DNA of 64,000 nt from a phage, in the sequence record PZ019085.1; one strand, written 5' to 3'. This document shows positions 4,183 through 58,874 of the stretch, one piece after another (within the stretch, counting starts at the first letter, position 1; every line of letters starts with the position of its first letter). The notes beneath the pieces are model-generated. The model was given only the letters and a program-made list of their open reading frames with translations. It was not told where the DNA came from and made no database searches. A program made the position numbers and the translations under genes.

Positions 4183-4545
4183 ATGAAAGCATATCAAATT
4201 CTTGAAGGTGCACATAAAGGCACTATTTATTTTGAAGACGGTACTCAAGCTCGGATTATCGTCTCTAAGACTTTTAAAGAAGACGCTATTGTAGACCCGG
4301 AAATTTTCTACGGTTTGAATGCCCGTGAAATTGAAATTGAACATCAACCTAAAGTTAAAATTGAAGGTGGTCAACATCTGAACGTTAACGTTCTGCGTCG
4401 CGAAACTCTGGAAGATGCAGTTAAGCATCCTGAAAAATATCCGCAGCTGACCATCCGCGTATCCGGTTATGCAGTTCGCTTTAACTCTCTGACTCCGGAA
4501 CAGCAGCGCGACGTTATCGCTCGTACCTTTACTGAGAGTCTATAA
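4183..4545 (+). CDS. Autonomous glycyl-radical cofactor (GrcA/YfiD-like)
   Basis: C-terminal ~65 aa ([59 protein letters not shown]) matches E. coli GrcA with the RVSGY glycyl-radical motif; that half has GC-rich host-like codons. Confidence 0.85.
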
Positions 4546-4769
4546 TGGCTAAATTGATTATAGAAGGGTCTGATGATGTTTTAAAATGTTTTGCCGCCTG
4601 GTTTAGTTGCTCAGGCGAGCAATCATTCGTTGAAGCATTTAGAACGGGTGATATTACTGGAAAATATCCGTCAACCGATATCACTGTACGCGGATATGGT
4701 ATTAATGAGCCTATCCAATTGGTCGAATATGACCTTGCCACCGATGAGGAAATTCCTTATGTCGATTGA
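4545..4769 (+). CDS. Hypothetical protein
   Basis: ORF track. Confidence 0.45.
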   Translation: MAKLIIEGSDDVLKCFAAWFSCSGEQSFVEAFRTGDITGKYPSTDITVRGYGINEPIQLVEYDLATDEEIPYVD

Positions 4770-5301: not shown

Positions 5302-5760
5302 ATGACTATCAATTCAGACGTTTTTATCCGCCGTAATAAACTCCGTCGAATCTTTGAAACGGAGTTCCGCAAAATAAATGCCGGTATAAAAGATGCTGCA
5401 AAGTCTCTTGGACTACCAGGCTTTCATATCAAGTATTCTCAACATCTCTTAGATCGTGCCATCCAGAGAGAAATAGATGAGAACTACGTTTTTGAATTAT
5501 TTCGTAAAGTAAAAAATCATGTTAAAGAAGTTGCAGAATTTTTATCAATGCCGGCACGTCCAGATGTTGATGAAGATTTTGTCGAAGGCGTCGAATATCG
5601 CCCAGGCCGTTTAGAAATAACTGATGGAAATCTTTGGTTAGGACTTACAGTCTGTCGCGAAAATCCAGCATTCAAAATGAAGACTCTTCAATGCAGAATG
5701 GCTATTATTAACAGTAAACGACTACCAGGAAAAGCTTCTAAAGCAGTGATTAAAATCTAG
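5302..5760 (+). CDS. Hypothetical protein
   Basis: ORF track; strong SD. Confidence 0.55.
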   Translation: MTINSDVFIRRNKLRRIFETEFRKINAGIKDAAKSLGLPGFHIKYSQHLLDRAIQREIDENYVFELFRKVKNHVKEVAEFLSMPARPDVDEDFVEGVEYRPGRLEITDGNLWLGLTVCRENPAFKMKTLQCRMAIINSKRLPGKASKAVIKI

Positions 5761-5768
5761 AGGTAAAC

Positions 5769-6311
5769 ATGAGAAAAGCACTACTCGCTGGTCTATTTGC
5801 TCTTTCGTTATCAGCACATAGCTCCGAGCATACTTTTAGTAATGTCCAACTCGATAACTTGAATTATGCTTATCAGTTTGGGGAACAGTTTTCTAAGGAT
5901 GGAAAATTTAAAACGCATGAAAATATGCATAAGAAAGGACTTGGATACATAATGGCCGCAATACTATGGCAGGAATCATCTGCCGGTATTAATCTTAAAG
6001 ATAAGAAAGGTCACCATGCGTATGGAATGTTCCAAAATTATCTACCAACAATGAGGGCAAGAATTAACCAGCTTGGTTATAATATGACTGACGCCCAAAT
6101 TAAGAAAATGCTATCTAAGCGGTCTAATTCAGCCAGATGGGCTTATATCGAATTTTCTTATTGGTTAAATATACATAATGGGGATATAAGAAAAGCTATA
6201 TCCTCATATAACGCGGGATGGAAGACAAGTGCTGGAAGTAAATATGCTTCTGAAGTCCTAGAAAAGGCCAATTACCTTAAATCAAATAAACTACTGGAAA
6301 TAAAAGAATGA
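5769..6311 (+). CDS. Secreted protein, lytic-transglycosylase-like (SLT-like)
   Basis: Signal peptide MRKALLAGLFALSLSAHSS; SLT-like motifs QESSAG ... AYGMFQ. Confidence 0.5.
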   Translation: MRKALLAGLFALSLSAHSSEHTFSNVQLDNLNYAYQFGEQFSKDGKFKTHENMHKKGLGYIMAAILWQESSAGINLKDKKGHHAYGMFQNYLPTMRARINQLGYNMTDAQIKKMLSKRSNSARWAYIEFSYWLNIHNGDIRKAISSYNAGWKTSAGSKYASEVLEKANYLKSNKLLEIKE

Positions 6312-6655
6312 CCAAAATGTTGGCTTTAATAGTTGGCTTGGTTTCATTTAACGCTCTTGCTAATACTACATATACTGATATAACGGAGTATACAAACAGA
6401 ACGGCGTCTGATTATTGTGGTCAAAGTCAAGAGTGTAAAGTAGATTTTTCACAAAAATTGTTATATGCGTATAAAGACGGAGAAAAAGATGGGGCGTCTA
6501 GTAGGTTCAAGGCGTCTACCTTAATTAAAAGATACTATAAAAAATGGCAAATATTAGAATGCTCGGTGGCGGAACCTAAAGATAAGGCAGCATGCAATTC
6601 TATGGTAGACCGTCTAGTTGACTCTTATAATAGAGGACTTGCAGCAAGTGATTAA
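6308..6655 (+). CDS. Secreted Cys-containing hypothetical protein
   Basis: Signal peptide MTKMLALIVGLVSFNALA. Confidence 0.5.
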   Translation: MTKMLALIVGLVSFNALANTTYTDITEYTNRTASDYCGQSQECKVDFSQKLLYAYKDGEKDGASSRFKASTLIKRYYKKWQILECSVAEPKDKAACNSMVDRLVDSYNRGLAASD

Positions 6656-7115
6656 AAACTATATCAAGGGCGATATTGTCGCCCTGTTTTCTAAAGGTAA
6701 TAATATCGCTCATGGGTGTAATTGTTTTCATACAATGGGCGCCGGTGTGGCAGGACAATTAGCAAAGGCTTATCCAAAAATTCTGGAAGCTGATAAACTT
6801 CAAACCGAATTCGGAGACGAGTCTAAACTCGGGACTTATTCGGTTTATGAAAAATATTTTAAGACACATAAAGCTTATTGCTTTAATCTTTATACACAGT
6901 TTGAGCCGGGACCTAATTTTGAGTACTATGCTTTAATGAATTGTATAATAGAATTAAATGAATTCGGAAAAAATAAGATAACAAAGCCTGTAATTTATAT
7001 GCCAAGAATTGGTGCGGGTATTGGTGGCGGAAACTGGGATGTCATCGAAGAGATTTTAGATACGTATTCCACTAAACTAGAAATTGTGATTGTTGATTGG
7101 GAACCATTATTATGA
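6648..7115 (+). CDS. Macro-domain protein (putative ADP-ribose binding/hydrolase)
   Basis: Macro-like motifs GDIVALFSKGNNIAHGCNCFHTMGAGVAGQL and IYMPRIGAGIGGGNW; the track ORF starts at TTG 6618, GTG at 6648 after gagga preferred. Confidence 0.6.
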   Translation: MIKNYIKGDIVALFSKGNNIAHGCNCFHTMGAGVAGQLAKAYPKILEADKLQTEFGDESKLGTYSVYEKYFKTHKAYCFNLYTQFEPGPNFEYYALMNCIIELNEFGKNKITKPVIYMPRIGAGIGGGNWDVIEEILDTYSTKLEIVIVDWEPLL

Positions 7116-7715: not shown

Positions 7716-8297
7716 ATGGCTAGTTTAATTTTTACATATGCCGCTATGAACGCTGGTAAGTCTGCTTCATTACTTACTGCCGCACATAACTATAAAGAAC
7801 GTGGCATGGGTGTATTAGTTCTTAAACCGGCTATTGATACTCGCGATTCAAAAGGTGAAATAGTCTCTCGTATTGGTATTCGTCAGGACGCCAATATAAT
7901 TACAAAAGACATGGATATCTTTGAATTCTATAAATGGGCTGCGGCACAAAAGGATATTCATTGTGTATTTGTTGACGAAGCTCAGTTCTTAACTACTGAA
8001 AAGGTGTATCAACTTAGTCGTATTGTTGACGTATACAATGTGCCAGTAATGGCATATGGACTACGAACAGATTTTAAAGGTAATCTATTTGAAGGTTCTC
8101 AAGCATTAATGGCTATTGCCGATAAGCTTGTTGAACTTAAAGGTGTCTGTCATTGTGGTAAAAAGGCCACAATGGTAGCTAGAGTCACGGAAGACGGACT
8201 TCCAATTACGGATGGCAGTCAAATTGAAATTGGTGATACCGATAGATATGTGTCATTATGCCGGAAGCATTGGAATGATTTGACAGGGTTGTTATAA
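7716..8297 (+). CDS. tk: Thymidine kinase
   Basis: P-loop NAGKSASLL, FVDEAQF, C-terminal CHCGKKA zinc ribbon; matches T4 Tk. Confidence 0.95.
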   Translation: MASLIFTYAAMNAGKSASLLTAAHNYKERGMGVLVLKPAIDTRDSKGEIVSRIGIRQDANIITKDMDIFEFYKWAAAQKDIHCVFVDEAQFLTTEKVYQLSRIVDVYNVPVMAYGLRTDFKGNLFEGSQALMAIADKLVELKGVCHCGKKATMVARVTEDGLPITDGSQIEIGDTDRYVSLCRKHWNDLTGLL

Positions 8298-8324
8298 ATA
8301 CTAATATCTAACCAAGAGGTATAT

Positions 8325-8537
8325 ATGCAGCAATTAAACGAAAGACAACTTCGTAATCTTACTGTAACCCAATTGGATGAAATCCGAAGAGAATTAGGAC
8401 ATTCTATTTCTCATTTAAACGAGGATATCCGTCAAACTGGTTCTAAAGCTGATTATACACGCAAGCGCAAGCTGGAAAAATACCTCACAGATGTTAAGGC
8501 CGTCCAAAGGCGAAAAATAAATACTGGCCAAAATTAA
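8325..8537 (+). CDS. Hypothetical protein
   Basis: ORF track. Confidence 0.45.
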
Positions 8538-8549
8538 CAGGAGGCCTAT

Positions 8550-8852
8550 ATGGCCTTAAGAGCGATAGCTGTCATGGCGATGCTGGGGTTTTTTGCAGCA
8601 ACAACTCCTAACGTTGGTACTGCGTACACCGACCCATATTTTGATAACTTTATGGAATCAGGGATTAAAAACGTATATACTTTGTTTGAAATTCAAAATG
8701 TCGAGAATTCTGAAAAATTCTATAAGTATATGGCAAAGCATTACAAAAATAGCCCCTGTGACGATGCATTTGAATGTCATGAACAAGGCATAAAAACTGC
8801 CAGACAATTTGCCGAGTTCATGAAAATAAAATTAGAGCCTACATCTATCTAA
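8550..8852 (+). CDS. Secreted or membrane hypothetical protein
   Basis: N-terminal hydrophobic signal (AIAVMAMLGFFAATTP). Confidence 0.5.
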   Translation: MALRAIAVMAMLGFFAATTPNVGTAYTDPYFDNFMESGIKNVYTLFEIQNVENSEKFYKYMAKHYKNSPCDDAFECHEQGIKTARQFAEFMKIKLEPTSI

Positions 8853-8858
8853 TTTACT

Positions 8859-10497: not shown

Positions 10498-10971
10498 ATG
10501 ATTATCAATGAAAACTCTTGGCACTTTAAAATTTATGCCATGTTCAATAGTACATGGCATCGTCCGAAAACGTTGTGTGCTTATTTTTGGAAAACGTTAA
10601 TCCCAGTATTGGCTGTTTCAATTATTGGATTTGCTATTTTAGCAGCAGTCGTAATCATTGGCCAGGAATTTTTAACTAGATTCTTTGTTTTTAGCAGTCT
10701 ATGGACATTAGTTCCGGCCTCAATTGGCGTAGGCATTTTAATGGTAGCAGTCATGGCTTTTATTGCTACCGGGTTGGTAATTGGCCCGTCTTGGTTGTTA
10801 GACAAATATAACGACAGAAAATATTATAAAGAAATTGAGCTCATTGCACAAAACCAAGAACGAATTAAAAATGGACTTGAGCCTATTGAACGTAAGAAAT
10901 CATTAATAGGTGAATACCTTAAAGCTCGTAAAGAAAAAATCTGTCCTACTCTTGAATATAAGGCTAAATGA
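10498..10971 (+). CDS. Hypothetical membrane protein
   Basis: Several hydrophobic segments. Confidence 0.5.
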   Translation: MIINENSWHFKIYAMFNSTWHRPKTLCAYFWKTLIPVLAVSIIGFAILAAVVIIGQEFLTRFFVFSSLWTLVPASIGVGILMVAVMAFIATGLVIGPSWLLDKYNDRKYYKEIELIAQNQERIKNGLEPIERKKSLIGEYLKARKEKICPTLEYKAK

Positions 10972-11957
10972 TGAAAACAATTATGAAAGGCTACTTTGGT
11001 AGTCACCTTTATGGAATGTCTACTCCTGAATCCGACGTCGATTTTAAAGAAATTTATGTCCCTCATGCTCGTGATATTTTGACCGGTAACGTTAAAGAAC
11101 ATATGAGCAAGAACACGAATAACACATCTTCTAAGAACACAAAAGACGACGTGGACCACGAGTTGTATAGTCTCAAATATTTCTTTAAACTAGCTGCAGA
11201 TGGTGAAACCGTCGCATTAGATATGCTTCACACTCCACCAGGTTTAGTAGTTAAATCTGATTTGCCTGACGTGTGGAAGTATATTCAAGATAACAGGTCT
11301 CGTTTCTATACCACTAACATGAAATCTTATTTAGGGTATGTCCGTAAGCAAGCTTCTAAATATGGTGTCAAGGGTTCTCGACTGGCTGTTCTTCGTCAAG
11401 CCCTTAAACGTTCTAATGAATGGGGACAATACTTTGATAATGGTGCAGTAATTCGTTTATCACATATGAAGAATGTTCTGCCTGTAGGTGAATTTGCTTC
11501 ATGGGTTGAAACCGAAAACGAGAAAACAGGTAAGCAAACATTCTATAATCTGTTAGACCGTAAATTCCAAGACACATTAACCAATAAAGAGTTCAATGCC
11601 ATCCTTGTTAAACTAGAAGAGAACTATGGCGAACGTGCTCGTAAGGCAGAAGCTAACGAAGGTATTGACTGGAAAGCATTGAGTCATGCATGTCGTGGTG
11701 GACTTCAATTATTGGAAATTTACAAAACAGGCGACCTGGTTTACCCACTTCAGGATGCTCCGTTTATTCTCGATGTTAAGCTTGGTAAACATACGTTTAA
11801 AACTGTACAAGAATTCCTAGAAGATATCGTTGACCAAGTTGAACATGCGTCAGAACAAGCTGCCAAGAACGGTATGCAACAAAAAGTAGATATGAGTTTC
11901 TGGGATGACTTCCTTGAACAAGTCTATCTCGAAAATCATAATTCTTACTATAAATAA
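10968..11957 (+). CDS. Predicted nucleotidyltransferase (Pol-beta-like fold)
   Basis: N-terminal motif GYFGSHLYGMSTPESDVDF resembles the NTase GS...DxD signature. Confidence 0.45.
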   Translation: MMKTIMKGYFGSHLYGMSTPESDVDFKEIYVPHARDILTGNVKEHMSKNTNNTSSKNTKDDVDHELYSLKYFFKLAADGETVALDMLHTPPGLVVKSDLPDVWKYIQDNRSRFYTTNMKSYLGYVRKQASKYGVKGSRLAVLRQALKRSNEWGQYFDNGAVIRLSHMKNVLPVGEFASWVETENEKTGKQTFYNLLDRKFQDTLTNKEFNAILVKLEENYGERARKAEANEGIDWKALSHACRGGLQLLEIYKTGDLVYPLQDAPFILDVKLGKHTFKTVQEFLEDIVDQVEHASEQAAKNGMQQKVDMSFWDDFLEQVYLENHNSYYK

Positions 11958-12255: not shown

Positions 12256-12374
12256 ATGTGGGGACCTTCGGGTCCCTTTAGGGGGTTAAAATATTTTTAA
12301 AAAAGTAGTGTACATGCTTTTAGGATATGTTATTATAGACCTATCGAAACGAAATGAGTAAATTGGAGAATAAA

Positions 12375-13355
12375 ATGTTCAACGTTCAAATCAAAAAAGG
12401 TATCTATCGTAATAACGAAATCTCTGGTTCTTATGTTGCCACAAAGACATGGTTCCCGGCAAAGCTTAATCCTGAATGTTCCCACTTAGGTGATGGTAAA
12501 ATTTTCGTTATGATTGATGGTTCTGAACGTGGAGTATGGGTCTTCAAATCAGACATCGTAATGGAAGGAGTTGAGACATCACCAGTTGCAGTTGTTGAAA
12601 GCACTGAAGATATGAAAACTCGTATCAACAAACGCTTTAAAGTAATGAACATGATGACGAATGGCATTATCGATGGCAAAATTCGTTCACTCATTATTTC
12701 AGGTGCAGCTGGTATTGGTAAGACGTATTCTCTGGATAAAGCACTTAATAATGCTAATGATAATGGTTTCATCAAATACAAAAGCATTAATGGTAAAATC
12801 TCCGGTATTGGCCTTTACGAACAGCTTTGGCTCAACCGTGATGCAGACAGCGTTCTCTTAATCGACGACGTTGACGTATTCTCGGATATGGACATCTTGA
12901 ACCTTCTTAAAGCAGCATTAGATACCGGAGATAAACGCAAAGTTTGTTGGAGCACTGCGTCATCTTATCTCGATGATAAGGGTATTGATAAAGAATTTGA
13001 GTTTGAAGGTACTATCGTTTTCATTACAAACGTTGATATCGATAAAGAGTTAGAACGCGGTTCGAAACTTGCTCCACACCTTCAAGCTTTAGTATCTCGT
13101 TCAGTGTATCTCGACCTTGGAGTACACTCTAATGAAGAGATTATGGTTCGAGTTGAAGATGTAATATTATCTACTGACATGATGCAGAAACGTGGCTTGA
13201 CTGATGCTGAAACGTACAAAGCATTGTCCTGGATGAAGGCTAATGTATCTCGTCTTCGCAATGTATCATTACGTACCGCTCTTTATGTAGCAGATTTTAT
13301 TTCAACTGATAAAGATGGTTGGGAGGAAATCTCTGAAGTTACTTTACTGAAATAA
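12375..13355 (+). CDS. AAA-type P-loop ATPase
   Basis: Walker A GAAGIGKT, Walker B LLIDDVD; ATG at 12375 after ggag. Confidence 0.6.
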   Translation: MFNVQIKKGIYRNNEISGSYVATKTWFPAKLNPECSHLGDGKIFVMIDGSERGVWVFKSDIVMEGVETSPVAVVESTEDMKTRINKRFKVMNMMTNGIIDGKIRSLIISGAAGIGKTYSLDKALNNANDNGFIKYKSINGKISGIGLYEQLWLNRDADSVLLIDDVDVFSDMDILNLLKAALDTGDKRKVCWSTASSYLDDKGIDKEFEFEGTIVFITNVDIDKELERGSKLAPHLQALVSRSVYLDLGVHSNEEIMVRVEDVILSTDMMQKRGLTDAETYKALSWMKANVSRLRNVSLRTALYVADFISTDKDGWEEISEVTLLK

Positions 13356-13493
13356 GCTTATAGGAAGTTCTGAGGTAACAAAAGCCATAAAGATGAATAA
13401 TCATATGGCTTACCTCAAAGAAGGACACCAGGAACCTACTGAGGGCATAGAAATATTTAAAAATAATGTTGTACAAATCAAAGAGGATATGAT

Positions 13494-13781
13494 ATGGATT
13501 TTATGCAAAAAATTAAAGCCGCAGTCGAACTGTATGCTCATCGTATGGTTAGTTCTACGATGCAATATAGCGAGGAGGTTCGCCAGGACTCTTCCTTGAA
13601 AGGAAAAACTAAAGCCTTAATTACCTTAGATCGTCTACAAAAGAATGCCCTAGAGTTGTTCCAGTACGACAAGGATGCATATAAGAAAGAACAGGAAGAG
13701 AAACTTAAATCCGAAAAATTACAGAAAATTCCGAAGTCGGTTTGGTTCAGTGGAAAAAATACCGAAAAAAGTTTCTTTTAG
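13494..13781 (+). CDS. Hypothetical protein
   Basis: ORF track; SD gagga. Confidence 0.45.
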   Translation: MDFMQKIKAAVELYAHRMVSSTMQYSEEVRQDSSLKGKTKALITLDRLQKNALELFQYDKDAYKKEQEEKLKSEKLQKIPKSVWFSGKNTEKSFF

Positions 13782-13839
13782 TTGTTTACAAGGTCTATGG
13801 TTATGTTATTATAGACCTATCAACTACTGGAGGTAAAAC

Positions 13840-14367
13840 ATGAACGCTAAAGATATTTTCAACCTGGTAAATTATAACGACGGTAAATTTAAATCTGAAG
13901 CACAAAGCAAGTTCTTTAATGACGTTGCTTATGGTAATCTCATTACCGTGGATGGAGGTCAGATTTTCAAATCTCGCTGGAATTGGATTGCTATCATCGA
14001 TTCAGTTGGAATTGTGGAAGTCTACAAAAACACTAACAAAAAACGTACATTATTCTGGTCTCGTGAAACTAACGAGCAGTACAAAAAGGATAAAGCATCT
14101 CGTTTATCCAAAGTAACCCAGGAAGATATCGAGTTTATCAAGAAAGATATCGAGATGTACGAAAATTTAATCGCTGAAGACCAGGCAGTACTCGATAAGT
14201 TTGATGAAATTAAAGCTTCTCGTGAAATCCCTGACTTCATGAAAGAATCAGTAAACGAACGATACGCTCTCACTTCAGAACGTATTGCAAACTATACAAA
14301 ACAGAAAGCAGAACGCATTAGTACTCTTCGGAAATTTGAAGAACGTTTAAAGACGGTTCACGCATAA
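13840..14367 (+). CDS. Hypothetical protein
   Basis: ORF track; early promoter upstream. Confidence 0.5.
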   Translation: MNAKDIFNLVNYNDGKFKSEAQSKFFNDVAYGNLITVDGGQIFKSRWNWIAIIDSVGIVEVYKNTNKKRTLFWSRETNEQYKKDKASRLSKVTQEDIEFIKKDIEMYENLIAEDQAVLDKFDEIKASREIPDFMKESVNERYALTSERIANYTKQKAERISTLRKFEERLKTVHA

Positions 14368-14429
14368 ACGCTTTACCCAAGGACGGGTTATAATGGTTTT
14401 GAGTTCCAATTCAATATGAGGAAATAGTT

Positions 14430-15425
14430 ATGAGCATTACATCTGATGCGGTAAAACATGAAATTAACGGTTTATGTGCTTCACAGATTAAAGTGTGGTT
14501 TAAAGACCATAATGATCGCAGAGCACTTAATTATGAGCAAATTGCTATCCAAGTTCATCAATTACTGACTAGTAAATTTGATTTTCATATGCCATCTGAA
14601 ATCTATACTAATCTGCCGCGAGCACTTATTAAAGCGTGTAAAGGTTATGGAAAATCAATGGCCGATGGAATCTTCAGCGCGCTGAATAAACTTAACGTTC
14701 TGTCGATGATTAACTCTAACAATATCCTGCGTAATCTAGGACGTACTGATTTGTTCGGTCGTGAACAGTGTAAAATGCCTTTGAAATGGATTGTTGCTCA
14801 TCTTAACGAGAACCAAACACGTTTTCTGGCCGTATCAGCACGCTTACAAATGGGCCTAGATCGTCAGATGAACTTTAAAACTCATCCACGTTATTCAGGT
14901 TCAACAGACTTTTATAAATGTGAGCTTCAAAAGGTTGCAGGTAAAACTGTCTTGGTAGTTCGTGTAACGTTTGAAGGACGACGTCAAGGATATTTTGACC
15001 TAATCGGCTCTGGTCTCAAACATTGTGGATTTATCGACGAAGTTGATATCAAGCGAGACGGCACTGGATACCGTATTGGATATGTTTGCACTCTTAAAGA
15101 AGAGATTTCGGGACCAGCACCAGGACTAAAAGATGTTAGATATAAAGACGAGCTCGTTGAAGAAATAAAAGAAGTTGAATATGATATCAACCAAGAAGAT
15201 GCTCTTAAAGACCTTATTGACGAACTAAACCAAGACGTTATTCCGGTTCAGAAATTTGAATCAAAACATGCTGAGCAAATCAAATACTTTGAAGCTTTGA
15301 TTAACGAACTTAATGTAACTATTCAACAGACTGATGATGAAATCTCACGATTAGCAGGCTTAAATGGTAAAAATAAAACGGAACGAGCTAATCTTATTCA
15401 AGTAGTAAAACTTCTTAAGGAATGA
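14430..15425 (+). CDS. Hypothetical protein with C-terminal coiled coil
   Basis: ORF track; heptad-like C-terminus. Confidence 0.55.
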   Translation: MSITSDAVKHEINGLCASQIKVWFKDHNDRRALNYEQIAIQVHQLLTSKFDFHMPSEIYTNLPRALIKACKGYGKSMADGIFSALNKLNVLSMINSNNILRNLGRTDLFGREQCKMPLKWIVAHLNENQTRFLAVSARLQMGLDRQMNFKTHPRYSGSTDFYKCELQKVAGKTVLVVRVTFEGRRQGYFDLIGSGLKHCGFIDEVDIKRDGTGYRIGYVCTLKEEISGPAPGLKDVRYKDELVEEIKEVEYDINQEDALKDLIDELNQDVIPVQKFESKHAEQIKYFEALINELNVTIQQTDDEISRLAGLNGKNKTERANLIQVVKLLKE

Positions 15426-15480
15426 TGTACAACCAGGGATGGTTGGAGTATAATAAATTTTTCAACATGAGGAATATAAA

Positions 15481-16455
15481 ATGGCTTTTATTACACGTAG
15501 AGAACTTATCAAAGAATTTACCTCGAACGCATATACCCCAGGACCTAATCCTATCCGTATGCCTGTAAAGACTCCTGAAGAGATTGAGGAAATCTGTTCA
15601 TATTATGGGATTAATTCTCGTATGTTTACTCAATTTGAATGCATTACTAACACACCCGTTAAAGAGTTCATTAAAAATGGTGAGTTCAGCCGTTTATTAG
15701 CCAAACAGAAACTTCGTAATTTTTGTATCGGCGGTGAAGGACAATATTTCGCTAAACAGTTCCGAAATAACCTTAACAATCTGATGGCCATTGCTTCTCG
15801 TATTCGTCCTCAAGCAATTAACATGAAACATTTGAAATATACTTACGATAAGTTAGAAATCATGGTTATCAGTGAGAACGAGTTCACTCTTACATATAAT
15901 CCTAAGAATGATAACGTTGCTCGTGTATTCCACCAAGCACTAGAAGTTTTAGGCGATAATATCCACCAGATTAAAGCGATTTATTCTCGTGAGCTTAATA
16001 TTATTGACCCTATCAAGAATAAGGGCAATATCGCTATCCAGGCTCGTGTATCTATTGGTAAAAAGGTTCCTGCGCCATGGTGGCACAAAGACTCTGAATA
16101 CTATCAAAATCTTAAAAAGGAAAATGCATTGTTTGAAGCATCGCTTACTGGGACCCCAATTGAACAGGCCGAAGTCCTAAGTGCTTATTCTACTTCGGGT
16201 AAATCAATGTTTAAAGGTTTGCCAAATGTGTGCAAACTGTCTGCAGTAAAACTAAATGTTTCTAATGACCTTCTTCCGGCCGAAGATTACCATTACAATC
16301 AAATCAAGGCCACTATGGACCAACTGTCTGTTGAACTTGACAAAGCACAAGCTAAGCTTCGTGATGCTCAAAGTGTTGTAACGAATCTCCAGTTGCAGTA
16401 TTCTAAACTTTTTAACGCAATGAATGCATTAAAATCATGGATGGTTGGAGTATAA
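15481..16455 (+). CDS. Hypothetical protein with C-terminal coiled coil
   Basis: ORF track. Confidence 0.55.
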   Translation: MAFITRRELIKEFTSNAYTPGPNPIRMPVKTPEEIEEICSYYGINSRMFTQFECITNTPVKEFIKNGEFSRLLAKQKLRNFCIGGEGQYFAKQFRNNLNNLMAIASRIRPQAINMKHLKYTYDKLEIMVISENEFTLTYNPKNDNVARVFHQALEVLGDNIHQIKAIYSRELNIIDPIKNKGNIAIQARVSIGKKVPAPWWHKDSEYYQNLKKENALFEASLTGTPIEQAEVLSAYSTSGKSMFKGLPNVCKLSAVKLNVSNDLLPAEDYHYNQIKATMDQLSVELDKAQAKLRDAQSVVTNLQLQYSKLFNAMNALKSWMVGV

Positions 16456-16484
16456 TGAATCTATCTTAACGAGAGGAAAATATT

Positions 16485-17435
16485 ATGACACGTTCACATT
16501 ACATTGAATACTTTGCCGGTCTTATCGCTAACGTTCATGCCCAACGTGCTTCTGGTTCATTAGGATTTGATGTTCCACATCGAGTTGTAGTAAGTGGTAT
16601 TCTTCGAGATTTTGGTACATACACAGGCCAAGAAAATCATATCTGTAAAGATACTCAAAATGCGTATTCTCATTCATTAGGGACACTGCTTCAATGGTTC
16701 AAACGTTCTCGTTTATTATCTTCTACTGTGGCTCGTGATAACATTAAAAACTTTATGAAGCCCAGCTTTATTAAATCTGTGACATCTAAAACCGATTTAG
16801 TTGAATTTACTATTATTAACGATGTTAAAAAGACTCATTTGGCCGATTGGTTATCTACCATTCCTGAAACTAAATTTGCTGATAAATTTGCTTGTGAATT
16901 CAATAACCAAGTGAATATGCTTTTTAAACATTCTCGTAAATTATTCACAGGCGGCGATGATCGTACAAATAAAGTTCATGTTAAAGATTGGGTTACTGCA
17001 GTATTCAAACCAACCGGTAATGGTAACGCATCATTGTCAATTGATATCCAGGTTCCTTATTACTACTCACGTAATCTCGGCACCATGAAAGCTGAAGAAA
17101 TTAAGAAGCACAATAAAACCATTCGTTCGCTGTCTTATAAACTTCGCATGATGTTACAGACTATGGATGTTGTTGAAATGTTCGACGAAACCGAAGATAA
17201 TGGTTCAATGTTATTCAGTTCTCGAATTAAAATTAAACTGAAGAACCCTAACGAGTATAAGCCTAAGCCTATTAAAGAGCCTAAAGCAGAAAAAGTTGAT
17301 AACTTAAGAGAAGAACGCGAATATCTCAAATCCCGTCTGAAAGAAGTCGAAGCCCAGATTGCAGAACAAACTAAATCGTTAAAAGCTCTGAATGCGAAAG
17401 CGGACGGTTTAAGAAATGCCATTGAGGTTTTATAA
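16485..17435 (+). CDS. Hypothetical protein with C-terminal coiled coil
   Basis: ORF track. Confidence 0.55.
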   Translation: MTRSHYIEYFAGLIANVHAQRASGSLGFDVPHRVVVSGILRDFGTYTGQENHICKDTQNAYSHSLGTLLQWFKRSRLLSSTVARDNIKNFMKPSFIKSVTSKTDLVEFTIINDVKKTHLADWLSTIPETKFADKFACEFNNQVNMLFKHSRKLFTGGDDRTNKVHVKDWVTAVFKPTGNGNASLSIDIQVPYYYSRNLGTMKAEEIKKHNKTIRSLSYKLRMMLQTMDVVEMFDETEDNGSMLFSSRIKIKLKNPNEYKPKPIKEPKAEKVDNLREEREYLKSRLKEVEAQIAEQTKSLKALNAKADGLRNAIEVL

Positions 17436-17740
17436 TGAAACTACGTCTTTTAGAGGATATTGATATGAGCACTAATCACAGCTTGGTTAAGTTTATTGAC
17501 GATAGTTCAAAGATTGAATTTGTTCAGCGAGATAAAATCCACAGTGAAGAAGAGTTCGTTCCTCCGGCATGGAACGAAATAATGAAAATGGTTGAACGAC
17601 GTGAAAATGCTGCCAAATCGGCAGCAAAACATCCATGCCCGGAATGTGGAACTATCCAAGTCCAACTGGTTAACTGGACCACTGATAACTTGAAATTGAA
17701 ATGCCGTAAATGCTTCCACAAATTTGAGAGAACATTATAA
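17435..17740 (+). CDS. Zinc-ribbon hypothetical protein
   Basis: CPECG ... CRKC. Confidence 0.5.
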   Translation: MKLRLLEDIDMSTNHSLVKFIDDSSKIEFVQRDKIHSEEEFVPPAWNEIMKMVERRENAAKSAAKHPCPECGTIQVQLVNWTTDNLKLKCRKCFHKFERTL

Positions 17741-18153
17741 TGAGATATAGCCTTCGTTGTTTTATTGCAGCTTTAGTTTTTGCCATCATTCCATTCATTT
17801 GGAACAGCCAGAATACTTACATGGAAACTAAAGTAATTCCTGTGGAGGTAGTGGAATTAATCTCAGGCCAATCTACAGGAAAATATTCTAAATTAGAATT
17901 TATTGCCGTCTATAAAGATGAGCAAGGACGAGTTTTTGACAGGCATGTATCACCGTCGTTTTATACGCTTCTGAATAAAGGTGATACGATAGCTATAGAA
18001 ATTCGTGAGATGGATATCAAACAAACTACTAAAGATAACTTGATTTGGTTCTTTGGTACAGTGTTGTTGGTTTCTATCTGTATCACAGGTTTTATTACAT
18101 GTATTGTATTTGGCATTGCATATTTAATTGATGAAAGGAAAAATAATGTTTAA
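17740..18153 (+). CDS. Membrane protein (N- and C-terminal TM segments)
   Basis: Hydrophobic termini. Confidence 0.5.
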   Translation: MRYSLRCFIAALVFAIIPFIWNSQNTYMETKVIPVEVVELISGQSTGKYSKLEFIAVYKDEQGRVFDRHVSPSFYTLLNKGDTIAIEIREMDIKQTTKDNLIWFFGTVLLVSICITGFITCIVFGIAYLIDERKNNV

Positions 18154-18409
18154 AGTGTACGGGTATGACTCTACTATTCATAAATGCATTTATTGTGATA
18201 ATGCGAAACGATTGCTGACTGTTAAGAAACAGCCATTCGAATTCATTAATGTTATGCCAGAAAAAGGTGTGTTCGATGATGAGAAAATTGCTGAGCTTCT
18301 GGTTAAGCTTGGACGTGAATCACAAGTCGGATTGACTATGCCTCAAGTGTTTGCTCCTGATGGAAGTCACATTGGTGGATTTGACCAACTACGAGAATAT
18401 TTTAAATGA
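18149..18409 (+). CDS. nrdC: Glutaredoxin/thioredoxin NrdC
   Basis: MFKVYGYDSTIHKCIYCDNAKRLL... matches T4 NrdC; CIYC active site. Confidence 0.9.
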   Translation, partial: FKVYGYDSTIHKCIYCDNAKRLLTVKKQPFEFINVMPEKGVFDDEKIAELLVKLGRESQVGLTMPQVFAPDGSHIGGFDQLREYFK

Positions 18410-18762
18410 CATATTCATTAAATCTTAAAGATTTCCAAGATGTATACGAAGTTTGTGCCAATGAACTTGGTCCTGATGCTCCAACTATTATTGAAGTTTT
18501 AAATGTGCTCCCTTCATCATTAGCTTACGAAGCCAAATCATGGGGTTGGAACGACACTGTCGTTCGTGATGACCTTTACGTCCTGATGAACGATATGATG
18601 GTTAAAAAGTCAGAACCGGTTGCACCAATGGTTACCATTACCGTTGAAGAATATAATCGCCTGCAAGCCATTGAAGAGCTTCTGTGGAACATTGAATGTG
18701 ACCTGCCGTCAGGGCTAGAATCCTGGATTGATTATGAAGAGCTCAATAAACTCCGGGGTTAA
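18406..18762 (+). CDS. Hypothetical acidic protein
   Basis: ORF track. Confidence 0.5.
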   Translation: MTYSLNLKDFQDVYEVCANELGPDAPTIIEVLNVLPSSLAYEAKSWGWNDTVVRDDLYVLMNDMMVKKSEPVAPMVTITVEEYNRLQAIEELLWNIECDLPSGLESWIDYEELNKLRG

Positions 18763-58251: not shown

Positions 58252-58317
58252 AATCAGTTTACAACCAAGGATGGTTGTGGTATAATCTTTCTATCTTAAC
58301 TAAACAGGAAAAACATT

Positions 58318-58812: not shown

Positions 58813-58874
58813 TGTTTTACATCCAAGGATGGATGGAGTATAATGAATTCAACTTAAACAAAGAGAGAAAAAAT

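Follow-up and report, generated by a model that had tools for sequence, protein, structure and literature searches.

The window analysed here is a 64,000-nucleotide (nt) stretch of the phage sequence record PZ019085.1, which belongs to a T4-type phage of the genus Mosigvirus (RB69-like) in the Straboviridae, and our subject is an array of three consecutive open reading frames (ORFs) on its plus strand. ORF1 occupies 14430-15425 (331 amino acids, aa), ORF2 15481-16455 (324 aa) and ORF3 16485-17435 (316 aa); 55 nt separate the first two, and each of the three is preceded at a distance of 6-8 nt by a GAGGAA Shine-Dalgarno sequence. An earlier note on this DNA had described three adjacent genes of similar length in the tk-nrdC region, and both parts of the description hold. 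The placement is right because the array lies between tk (PF00265; 7716-8297) and the gene for the nrdC glutaredoxin (18128-18409); genes for endonuclease VII and nrdD are found downstream of the array. Over the region 12300-18500, identity to the best matches among phages of Escherichia and Shigella, such as EP02SG, ST0 and JK45, is 96.6-97.1%, and each of the three ORFs is kept across hundreds of phage genomes.

Judged by their sequences, ORF1, ORF2 and ORF3 are the Mosigvirus counterparts of the named T4 genes nrdC.6, nrdC.5 and nrdC.3, respectively. T4 carries four such genes in succession, nrdC.6 (275 aa), nrdC.5 (340 aa), nrdC.4 (333 aa) and nrdC.3 (308 aa), VR7 and Bp7 carry nrdC.6, nrdC.5 and nrdC.4, and the window is without an NrdC.4 copy, ORF2 and ORF3 lying just 29 nt apart. 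The genes themselves are named and widespread; what is new here is that NrdC.3, NrdC.4, NrdC.5 and NrdC.6 are joined with relatives from other genera into one superfamily with a head-plus-stalk layout.

The identity of ORF2 is given by the Pfam family DUF7235 (PF23882), whose profile it matches end to end (positions 1-307 of 307) with 407.5 bits (expect value E 5e-122; gathering threshold 30 bits). On this model T4 NrdC.5 reaches 420.6 bits and VR7 NrdC.5 419.8 bits; neither ORF1 nor ORF3 gives a match to it. ORF2 belongs to phrog_2351, its RB69 homologue is annotated NrdC.5, it sits in the same slot between the homologues of nrdC.6 and of nrdC.3/nrdC.4, and it has in common with T4 NrdC.5 the length class, an N-terminal TR motif and the heptad tail described below. 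The two proteins have nevertheless diverged to about 25% identity (BLASTP E 2e-9), with the Mosigvirus type forming a tblastn group of its own (133 records), and ORF2 of the window ends in five additional residues that result from an 18-nt deletion.

ORF1 matches phrog_2257 over residues 1-331 (E 1e-127), as T4 NrdC.6 also does. Its identity to NrdC.6 of T4, T2 and VR7 is 30-34% (33-34% to T4 and T2 by tblastn), and the same range holds for the NrdC.6 proteins across Tequatrovirus, Gaprivervirus and Dhakavirus. Common to ORF1 and the NrdC.6 homologues is a nearly invariant tail, QI.F....I..L...I.Q.DDEI.RL....K.K.ER.....LLK, while ORF1 exceeds NrdC.6 by 35-55 aa, its linker holding an acidic insertion that accounts for the difference. 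ORF3 matches phrog_1435 over residues 1-316 (E 1e-104), the family that T4 NrdC.3 and NrdC.4 match as well; it is 57% identical to NrdC.3 over the full length and is a paralogue of NrdC.4, with which it aligns end to end and has the motifs MTRxxYIxxF, FKxSRLL and GDxR in common. In the annotation of relatives, PF26899 is recorded on ORF1 homologues of 68-99% identity and PF26897 on all 33 close ORF3 homologues; the homologue search gave close relatives alone, 4, 19 and 33 proteins for ORF1, ORF2 and ORF3, respectively. For none of the three did Pfam and NCBIfam searches return a catalytic or ligand-binding family, a search of PDB sequences returned no relative of solved structure, and no cellular homologue was found, in agreement with the earlier impression that the proteins are without obvious enzymatic motifs. 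The literature searched contains no reported function of T4 NrdC.3 or NrdC.4 and nothing on the Pfam and PHROG accessions of the families.

Within Tequatrovirus, NrdC.3 falls into two allele classes in the tblastn comparison with the phage collection, one about 73-76% identical to ORF3 (RB5, RB14 and KIT03 among others) and the other about 55-57% (T4, RB68 and wV7 among others). This suggests either exchange between genera or strong diversification at the locus.

All three proteins end in a heptad pattern, as had been noticed before. Each protein was compared with 500 shuffles of itself using a simple custom heptad scorer, which is not a published predictor: the segment at residues 281-309 of ORF1 was equalled by 4 of the 500 shuffles, and the segments at 267-321 of ORF2 and 264-316 of ORF3 by none. 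The C-terminal segment is the only or the top-scoring one in each protein, and the neighbouring AAA+ protein NrdC.10 gives no heptad signal in the same test. The tails span 15264..15419 in ORF1 (aa 279-330, with a brief break at GLNG, aa 310-313), 16279..16443 in ORF2 (aa 267-321) and 17274..17432 in ORF3 (aa 264-316), all on the plus strand, and the tail of ORF2 aligns without gaps to those of ORF1 and ORF3. When the last 52 residues are read in one unbroken register, hydrophobic residues occupy 10 of the 15 a/d positions in ORF1, all 15 in ORF2 and 12 of 15 in ORF3; seven heptads are present, where at least four uninterrupted ones with hydrophobic a/d positions and predicted helix are asked of a coiled coil. 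AlphaFold2 (AF2) models place helices at 281-309 and 313-330 in the tail of ORF1 (predicted local distance difference test score, pLDDT, 63-76) and one helix at 275-315 in that of ORF3. The coiled coil proposed for each C-terminus is borne out by the scorer in all three proteins and by the modelled helices in ORF1 and ORF3; strictly, the tails are predicted 'coiled-coil-type heptad helices'.

The remainder of the protein is organised differently. In the AF2 model of ORF1 (m6c15fc44c5b5; pLDDT 65) a helical N-domain of about aa 1-141 is followed by a beta-hairpin, a helix and a second beta-hairpin (aa 162-219), a low-confidence linker (aa 209-277) and the heptad tail. The model of ORF3 (m6ae921a761f5) is poor overall (pLDDT 54), with aa 1-85 confident. 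Sequence conservation is unevenly distributed over this layout, the tail being the best-conserved segment in all five families compared: pairwise identities of tail against head are 0.65 against 0.41 for NrdC.6, 0.44 against 0.36 for NrdC.5, 0.79 against 0.68 for NrdC.3, 0.75 against 0.57 for NrdC.4, and 0.37 against 0.30 for family K, a related family introduced below. The majority of the invariant columns of the NrdC.6 family fall in the tail, a second conserved block lies in the head around residues 80-160, and conservation is lowest in the linker, which also varies in length. The combination of a conserved tail, a fast-evolving head and a variable linker points to a head that varies for recognition and is carried on a stalk under constraint.

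Are the three genes paralogues, as the earlier note proposed? Pairwise BLASTP among ORF1, ORF2 and ORF3 finds nothing, and PHROGs and Pfam place them in three separate families; taken alone, the BLASTP result would amount to the absence of any detectable relationship that the earlier note had named as telling against its proposal. Profile methods nevertheless speak for paralogy. Family alignments for hhalign drew on coliphages of four genera (Mosigvirus, Tequatrovirus, Gaprivervirus and Dhakavirus) and were built for the NrdC.3, NrdC.4, NrdC.5 and NrdC.6 families (C3, C4, C5 and C6), with and without the tails, removed as the last 60 aa. In a first round with shallow alignments C3-C4 was the sole link. 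This link is strong, with 98% probability (E 4e-13) and also 98% without tails, and C5 against C3 and C4 combined gives 94.8% at full length and 85% without tails. The N-terminal TRxxxIxxF is common to NrdC.3, NrdC.4 and both NrdC.5 types, each of the latter starting with the TR motif.

A bridge to the remaining family came from structure. A fold search of the ORF1 model in BFVD returned uncharacterised proteins of about 300-335 aa from T4-type phages of Enterobacter, Pectobacterium, Klebsiella and Acinetobacter (E 1e-5 to 1e-9, template modelling score, TM, about 0.45), whose loci were located with the conserved NrdC.10 gene as anchor. In Jiaodavirus and Karamvirus a single gene of about 325-350 aa, which we call family K, lies just upstream of nrdC.2/nrdC. 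Family K matches C3 and C4 combined at 98% (97.5% without tails), C5 at 96% (88%) and C6 at 73% (73%). Once K is merged in, C5 without tails matches C3+C4+K at 96%, and C6 matches C3+C4+K at 79.4% at full length and 92.6% without tails, and C3+C4+C5+K at 96.7% and 94.9%; the tail-less alignments of C5 and C6 to merged profiles span 170-180 columns. Control comparisons stay at 0.1-1.9% for reversed alignments, at no more than 0.4% for column-shuffled ones and at no more than 1.4% for the unrelated neighbours NrdC.8 and NrdC.10. Two single proteins from further hosts behave like family members, gp94 of Yersinia phage fHe-Yen9-01 reaching 96-97% against the merged profile (93-94% without tail) and orf117 of Acinetobacter phage Konradin 89-94%; together they score 93-97% against C3+C4+C5+K and 89-96% when C6 is included too. 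The models of ORF1 and ORF3 find the same BFVD entries, E5EPQ6, E5EYP0 and E5E4A2 (Acinetobacter phage), with probability 1.00, and agree in the order of their elements: helical bundle, beta-hairpin, helix, beta-hairpin, disordered linker and long C-terminal helix, at pLDDT values of 65 and 54.

These comparisons argue for the proposed divergent paralogue family, most firmly for ORF2 and ORF3 and least firmly for ORF1, through profile-profile links whose controls do not exceed 2%. ORF2 and ORF3 are very probably paralogues. ORF1 is probably a member of the same superfamily, on account of the merged profiles, the BFVD matches it has in common with ORF3 and the matching order of secondary-structure elements. 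Several observations weigh against extending the family so far. In direct comparison C6 matches C3 and C4 combined at 40% at full length and at 2% without tails, and its direct pairwise tests without tails reach just 2-7%, so that the link of ORF1 leans on merged profiles of heterogeneous make-up and on models whose pLDDT is 65 and 54. Furthermore, a stacked three-family profile scanned against 1.84 billion representatives retrieved 10 proteins and missed T4 NrdC.4 and NrdC.5, which means that the alignments are shallow throughout; the scan also shows that the families are narrow. A search of IMG/VR for related loci gave seven, all close. Of the further checks that the earlier note had suggested beside coiled-coil prediction, pairwise HHalign succeeded for C3-C4, for C5 against C3+C4 and for the bridge through K, and was insignificant for C6 directly against C5 or C3, while structure prediction gave ORF1 and ORF3 the same element order and common BFVD matches from models of medium or low confidence.

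The opposite view, that the three proteins are unrelated and have in common their size and a coiled coil acquired independently or swapped by recombination, draws on the same negative results, namely BLASTP, the three separate PHROGs and Pfam families and the insignificant direct comparisons of C6 with C5 and with C3. Coiled coils are moreover prone to spurious similarity, and a 47-nt repeat spans gene ends and promoter at this locus. We consider this view improbable, because the links persist once the tails are cut away (96% for C5 against C3+C4+K and 95% for C6 against C3+C4+C5+K, over 170-180 columns) while reversed and shuffled controls stay at or below 2% and NrdC.8 and NrdC.10 below 1.5%, and because the TRxxxIxxF motif lies at the N-terminus of NrdC.3, NrdC.4 and both NrdC.5 types and the ORF1 and ORF3 models agree in BFVD matches and element order.

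The single-copy relatives in Klebsiella phages (Jiaodavirus, phrog_23608) and Enterobacter phages (Karamvirus, phrog_31182), and with them the structure-level relatives from Acinetobacter, Pectobacterium and Yersinia phages, resemble ORF1-ORF3 in size (292-352 aa), in genomic position and in the layout of head, linker and heptad tail. Outside the coliphages the relatives differ in number, a genome carrying one or two of them instead of three or four; they are about 10-15% identical and unannotated. As far as these searches reach, the superfamily appears limited to T4-type phages (Straboviridae).

In natural isolates individual copies have been lost or broken. In ACG-C40 just a 71-aa 5' stub of nrdC.5 and a tail remnant of nrdC.3 are left (4230-4640 of the fetched stretch), in Pinarejo an nrdC.6 tail remnant alone (4436-4650 of the fetched stretch), and in T2 nrdC.6 and nrdC.4 are each broken into two ORFs (5935-6768 and 7916-8855 of the fetched stretch); the remnants are typically the 3' ends that encode the tails. 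The T4 reference NC_000866.4 carries a 1-nt deletion in nrdC.6 (GAGCTG-ATATT) relative to other Tequatroviruses, a frameshift near the 3' end of the gene (about 5735-5850 of the fetched stretch) by which the conserved tail is lost; the tail is intact in another frame, where it reads ISIQQYDDEIFRLSGLSSKAKSEREKLIKIVDLLKS up to the stop. In another T4 record, MT984581.1, tblastn reads through nrdC.6 to the tail unbroken, and the deletion in the reference is either a mutation of the laboratory strain or an old sequencing error. Because copies are lost, split or frameshifted in ACG-C40, Pinarejo, T2 and the T4 reference, the NrdC paralogues are naturally dispensable accessory genes.

What could be the function of such accessory proteins? 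A T4 clone deleted in the nrdC region fails on E. coli ECOR17 unless dsr1 is removed from the host, and T4 NrdC.5 restores infection of cells carrying Dsr1, a SIR2 defence of this strain (Srikant et al., eLife 2022, PMC9391042). Two further products of the region have been reported to counter defences, NrdC.1 that of Septu (bioRxiv 10.1101/2025.11.20.689424) and Gp49.2 that of OLD (PMC13096335). With these three reports, the stretch from pin to mobD behaves as an anti-defence island. No mechanism for the action of NrdC.5 on Dsr1 is given in PMC9391042 or in the later literature searched.

We somewhat favour the hypothesis that ORF1-ORF3 are stoichiometric inhibitors of host defences, in which a variable target-binding head is carried on a conserved oligomerising stalk. 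The head, a fast-evolving alpha/beta part of about 220-250 aa without catalytic signature, would bind one particular target; a low-complexity linker would connect it to the stalk; the stalk, a better-conserved heptad helix of some 50 aa at the C-terminus, would oligomerise for avidity or dock on a common partner. Tandem duplication and divergence would yield a panel of specificities, expressed in the early or middle period from promoter cassettes of their own that are nearly identical, as suggested by pattern matches. ORF2 would be a candidate inhibitor of a Dsr1-type SIR2 defence. A precedent for this kind of mechanism is DSAD1 of an SPbeta-family phage, which inhibits DSR2, a defence protein with SIR2-domain NADase activity, by direct binding. 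This is an analogy alone, as DSAD1 acts on another defence protein and comes from another phage group, and no relation of sequence or fold is expected.

We infer the defence-inhibitor function from the genomic context and from a single homologue with 25% identity; we likewise infer that the proteins bind rather than catalyse, that they oligomerise, that ORF1 and ORF3 have anti-defence roles and that ORF2 may still act on Dsr1. Against this hypothesis it must be held that the phenotype was obtained with the T4 homologue and not with ORF1-ORF3 themselves; that at about 25% identity to T4 NrdC.5 the specificity of ORF2 may differ; that, the anti-Dsr1 mechanism of NrdC.5 being unpublished, 'binding' is a guess; and that oligomerisation is a prediction from the heptad pattern. 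The four-family global alignment contains three conserved columns, all hydrophobic, and the lack of a conserved polar column comes from an unreliable alignment of families that are about 10-15% identical.

A tail that is better conserved than the head in every family is uncommon among coiled coils that simply oligomerise, and leads to an alternative that we regard as possible though unlikely: that the paralogues are host-takeover or regulatory proteins whose conserved tail docks all copies on the same partner, for example the membrane, the nucleoid or a coiled-coil protein of host or phage, while the heads bring differing activities or ligands. It would be in keeping with the similarity of the NrdC.5, NrdC.3 and K tails (68-79% hhalign probability), with an anti-defence phenotype in one member alone and with the position of the genes as early or middle genes among those for nucleotide metabolism and takeover. 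No such partner is known, however, the loss and truncation of copies in natural isolates without obvious cost are a better fit to a host-specific accessory role, and the single phenotype on record is counter-defence. A bolder extension of the inhibitor hypothesis, which we hold to be doubtful, has the stalk bring the paralogues together, perhaps as hetero-oligomers, in a single multivalent particle whose heads are directed against different immune sensors. Just as speculatively, Dsr1 would then be just the first sensor found, and the promoter and tail cassettes would let recombination swap, duplicate and delete heads. Such a modular counter-defence array, if real, would be a phage counterpart to the bacterial defence islands. 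Far less credible than either is a role as thioredoxin-like redox proteins or as structural proteins of the capsid-scaffolding type, which we give almost no weight. It is fed by the deposited annotation, dozens of GenBank genomes labelling ORF1-ORF3 homologues 'thioredoxin' or 'Thioredoxin, phage-associated', and by the Pfam family Phage_scaffold, which the tail of ORF3 matches weakly (E 0.27). That match lies far under the 35-bit cut-off and is limited to the coiled coil, and the genes stand in the early region on the early strand. A thioredoxin or glutaredoxin identity was rejected, as ORF1-ORF3 match no such family in Pfam or NCBIfam while the nrdC control at 18128-18409 matches PF00462; a CxxC motif is absent from all three translations.

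The homologues of nrdC.2 to nrdC.11 are mislabelled thioredoxin in the same manner, and since eight or nine neighbouring genes per genome carry the label, it appears to have spread from the locus name nrdC.x. These GenBank labels can be flagged as propagated errors. In the record ESCO10 the product names are shifted along the whole region, an NrdC.5 homologue being called, for example, 'endonuclease II'.

Joining NrdC.3, NrdC.4, NrdC.5 and NrdC.6 with the relatives in Klebsiella, Enterobacter, Yersinia and Acinetobacter phages into one superfamily is also of practical interest. T4-type phages are leading candidates for therapy, and their host range on natural E. coli is largely set by accessory counter-defence genes that are mostly unannotated. 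The NrdC.5-Dsr1 phenotype provides a testable hypothesis for a gene set present in more than 600 sequenced phages, and the variable head and conserved stalk offer a domain plan for the design of truncations and chimeras. The gain is incremental, and this is not a new kind of system.

The genes of the array are accompanied by repeated promoter-like elements. Upstream of ORF1, a pattern match at 14370..14394 (plus strand) consists of a MotA-box-like GCTTTA, a 13-nt spacer and TATAAT; it resembles a T4 middle promoter and may act as one. Upstream of ORF2 lies a cassette of the sigma-70 or early type at 15426..15454 (plus strand; TGTACA, 17 nt, TATAAT), which includes the 18-mer GGATGGTTGGAGTATAAT. 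A second copy of the cassette at 16439..16456 (plus strand), upstream of ORF3, overlaps the last codons of ORF2 and has lost its -35 element. The 18-mer precedes both ORF2 and ORF3 and has four occurrences in the window, where 0.05 would be expected. Near-copies of it are found some 42 kb away at 58269-58286 and 58827-58844. All these elements are pattern matches, and the totals of promoter-like and terminator-like sites are not above those of shuffled sequence; the positions of the elements and the repeated 18-mer alone are informative.

Each cassette forms part of a longer direct repeat of 47 nt, which comprises the end of the preceding gene together with the promoter cassette; its copies, at 15417..15463 and 16419..16465 on the plus strand, are 79% identical, spaced by 1002 nt, and bracket ORF2. 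In other Mosigviruses both copies of the cassette are complete promoters of the form TTTACA-17-TATAAT. Relative to these, the window has a specific 18-nt deletion at the ORF2/ORF3 junction (16456-16484), which took out the TAA stop of ORF2 and stripped the ORF3 promoter of TTTACA, its -35 element. With its stop codon removed, ORF2 gains the five residues WMVGV, and after the loss of the -35 element ORF3 of the window may depend on read-through transcription. Another direct repeat with promoter-like cassettes, of 42 nt and 81% identity (12304-12345 and 13780-13821), precedes the genes for the NrdC.10-like and NrdC.8-like proteins. Cassette shuffling has been described for the hyperplastic regions of T4-type phages, and this repeat and the distant near-copies of the 18-mer may be substrates for it.

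Several neighbours of the array deserve mention. The NrdC.8-like protein (13840-14367, 175 aa), which has heptad-like segments at 94-121 and 146-173 at its end, was considered as a family member and rejected (hhalign at most 1.4%). The models of ORF1 and ORF3 weakly match a 175-aa protein of Klebsiella phage KPV15 in BFVD (E 6e-3 and 3e-2). The NrdC.10-like protein (12354-13355) is a P-loop ATPase of the AAA type with the Walker A motif GAAGIGKT and weak matches to AAA_22, AAA_16 and STAND; its 1312 phage records extend to KVP40-like phages of Vibrio and to jumbo phages, RaK2 among them, and give it a far wider distribution than its neighbours. Adjacent to it, the NrdC.11-like gene (10968-11957) gives a match to RlaP, a nucleotidyltransferase family. 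Upstream of tk, an ORF of 165 aa (6618-7115) matches the Macro domain (PF01661, E 3e-6); enzymes that remove ADP-ribose have been reported as a counter-defence of T4-like phages against DarTG, and by analogy this ORF could be a candidate for such an enzyme. At the other end, the homologue of NrdC.2 (17435-17740, 101 aa) begins within the stop of ORF3, the two overlapping in ATGA at 17435; it belongs to phrog_1474, has weak Zn_ribbon matches and the zinc-ribbon signature CPECG...CRKC, and is conserved beside the last paralogue in all genera examined, the Klebsiella and Enterobacter phages with their single copy among them.

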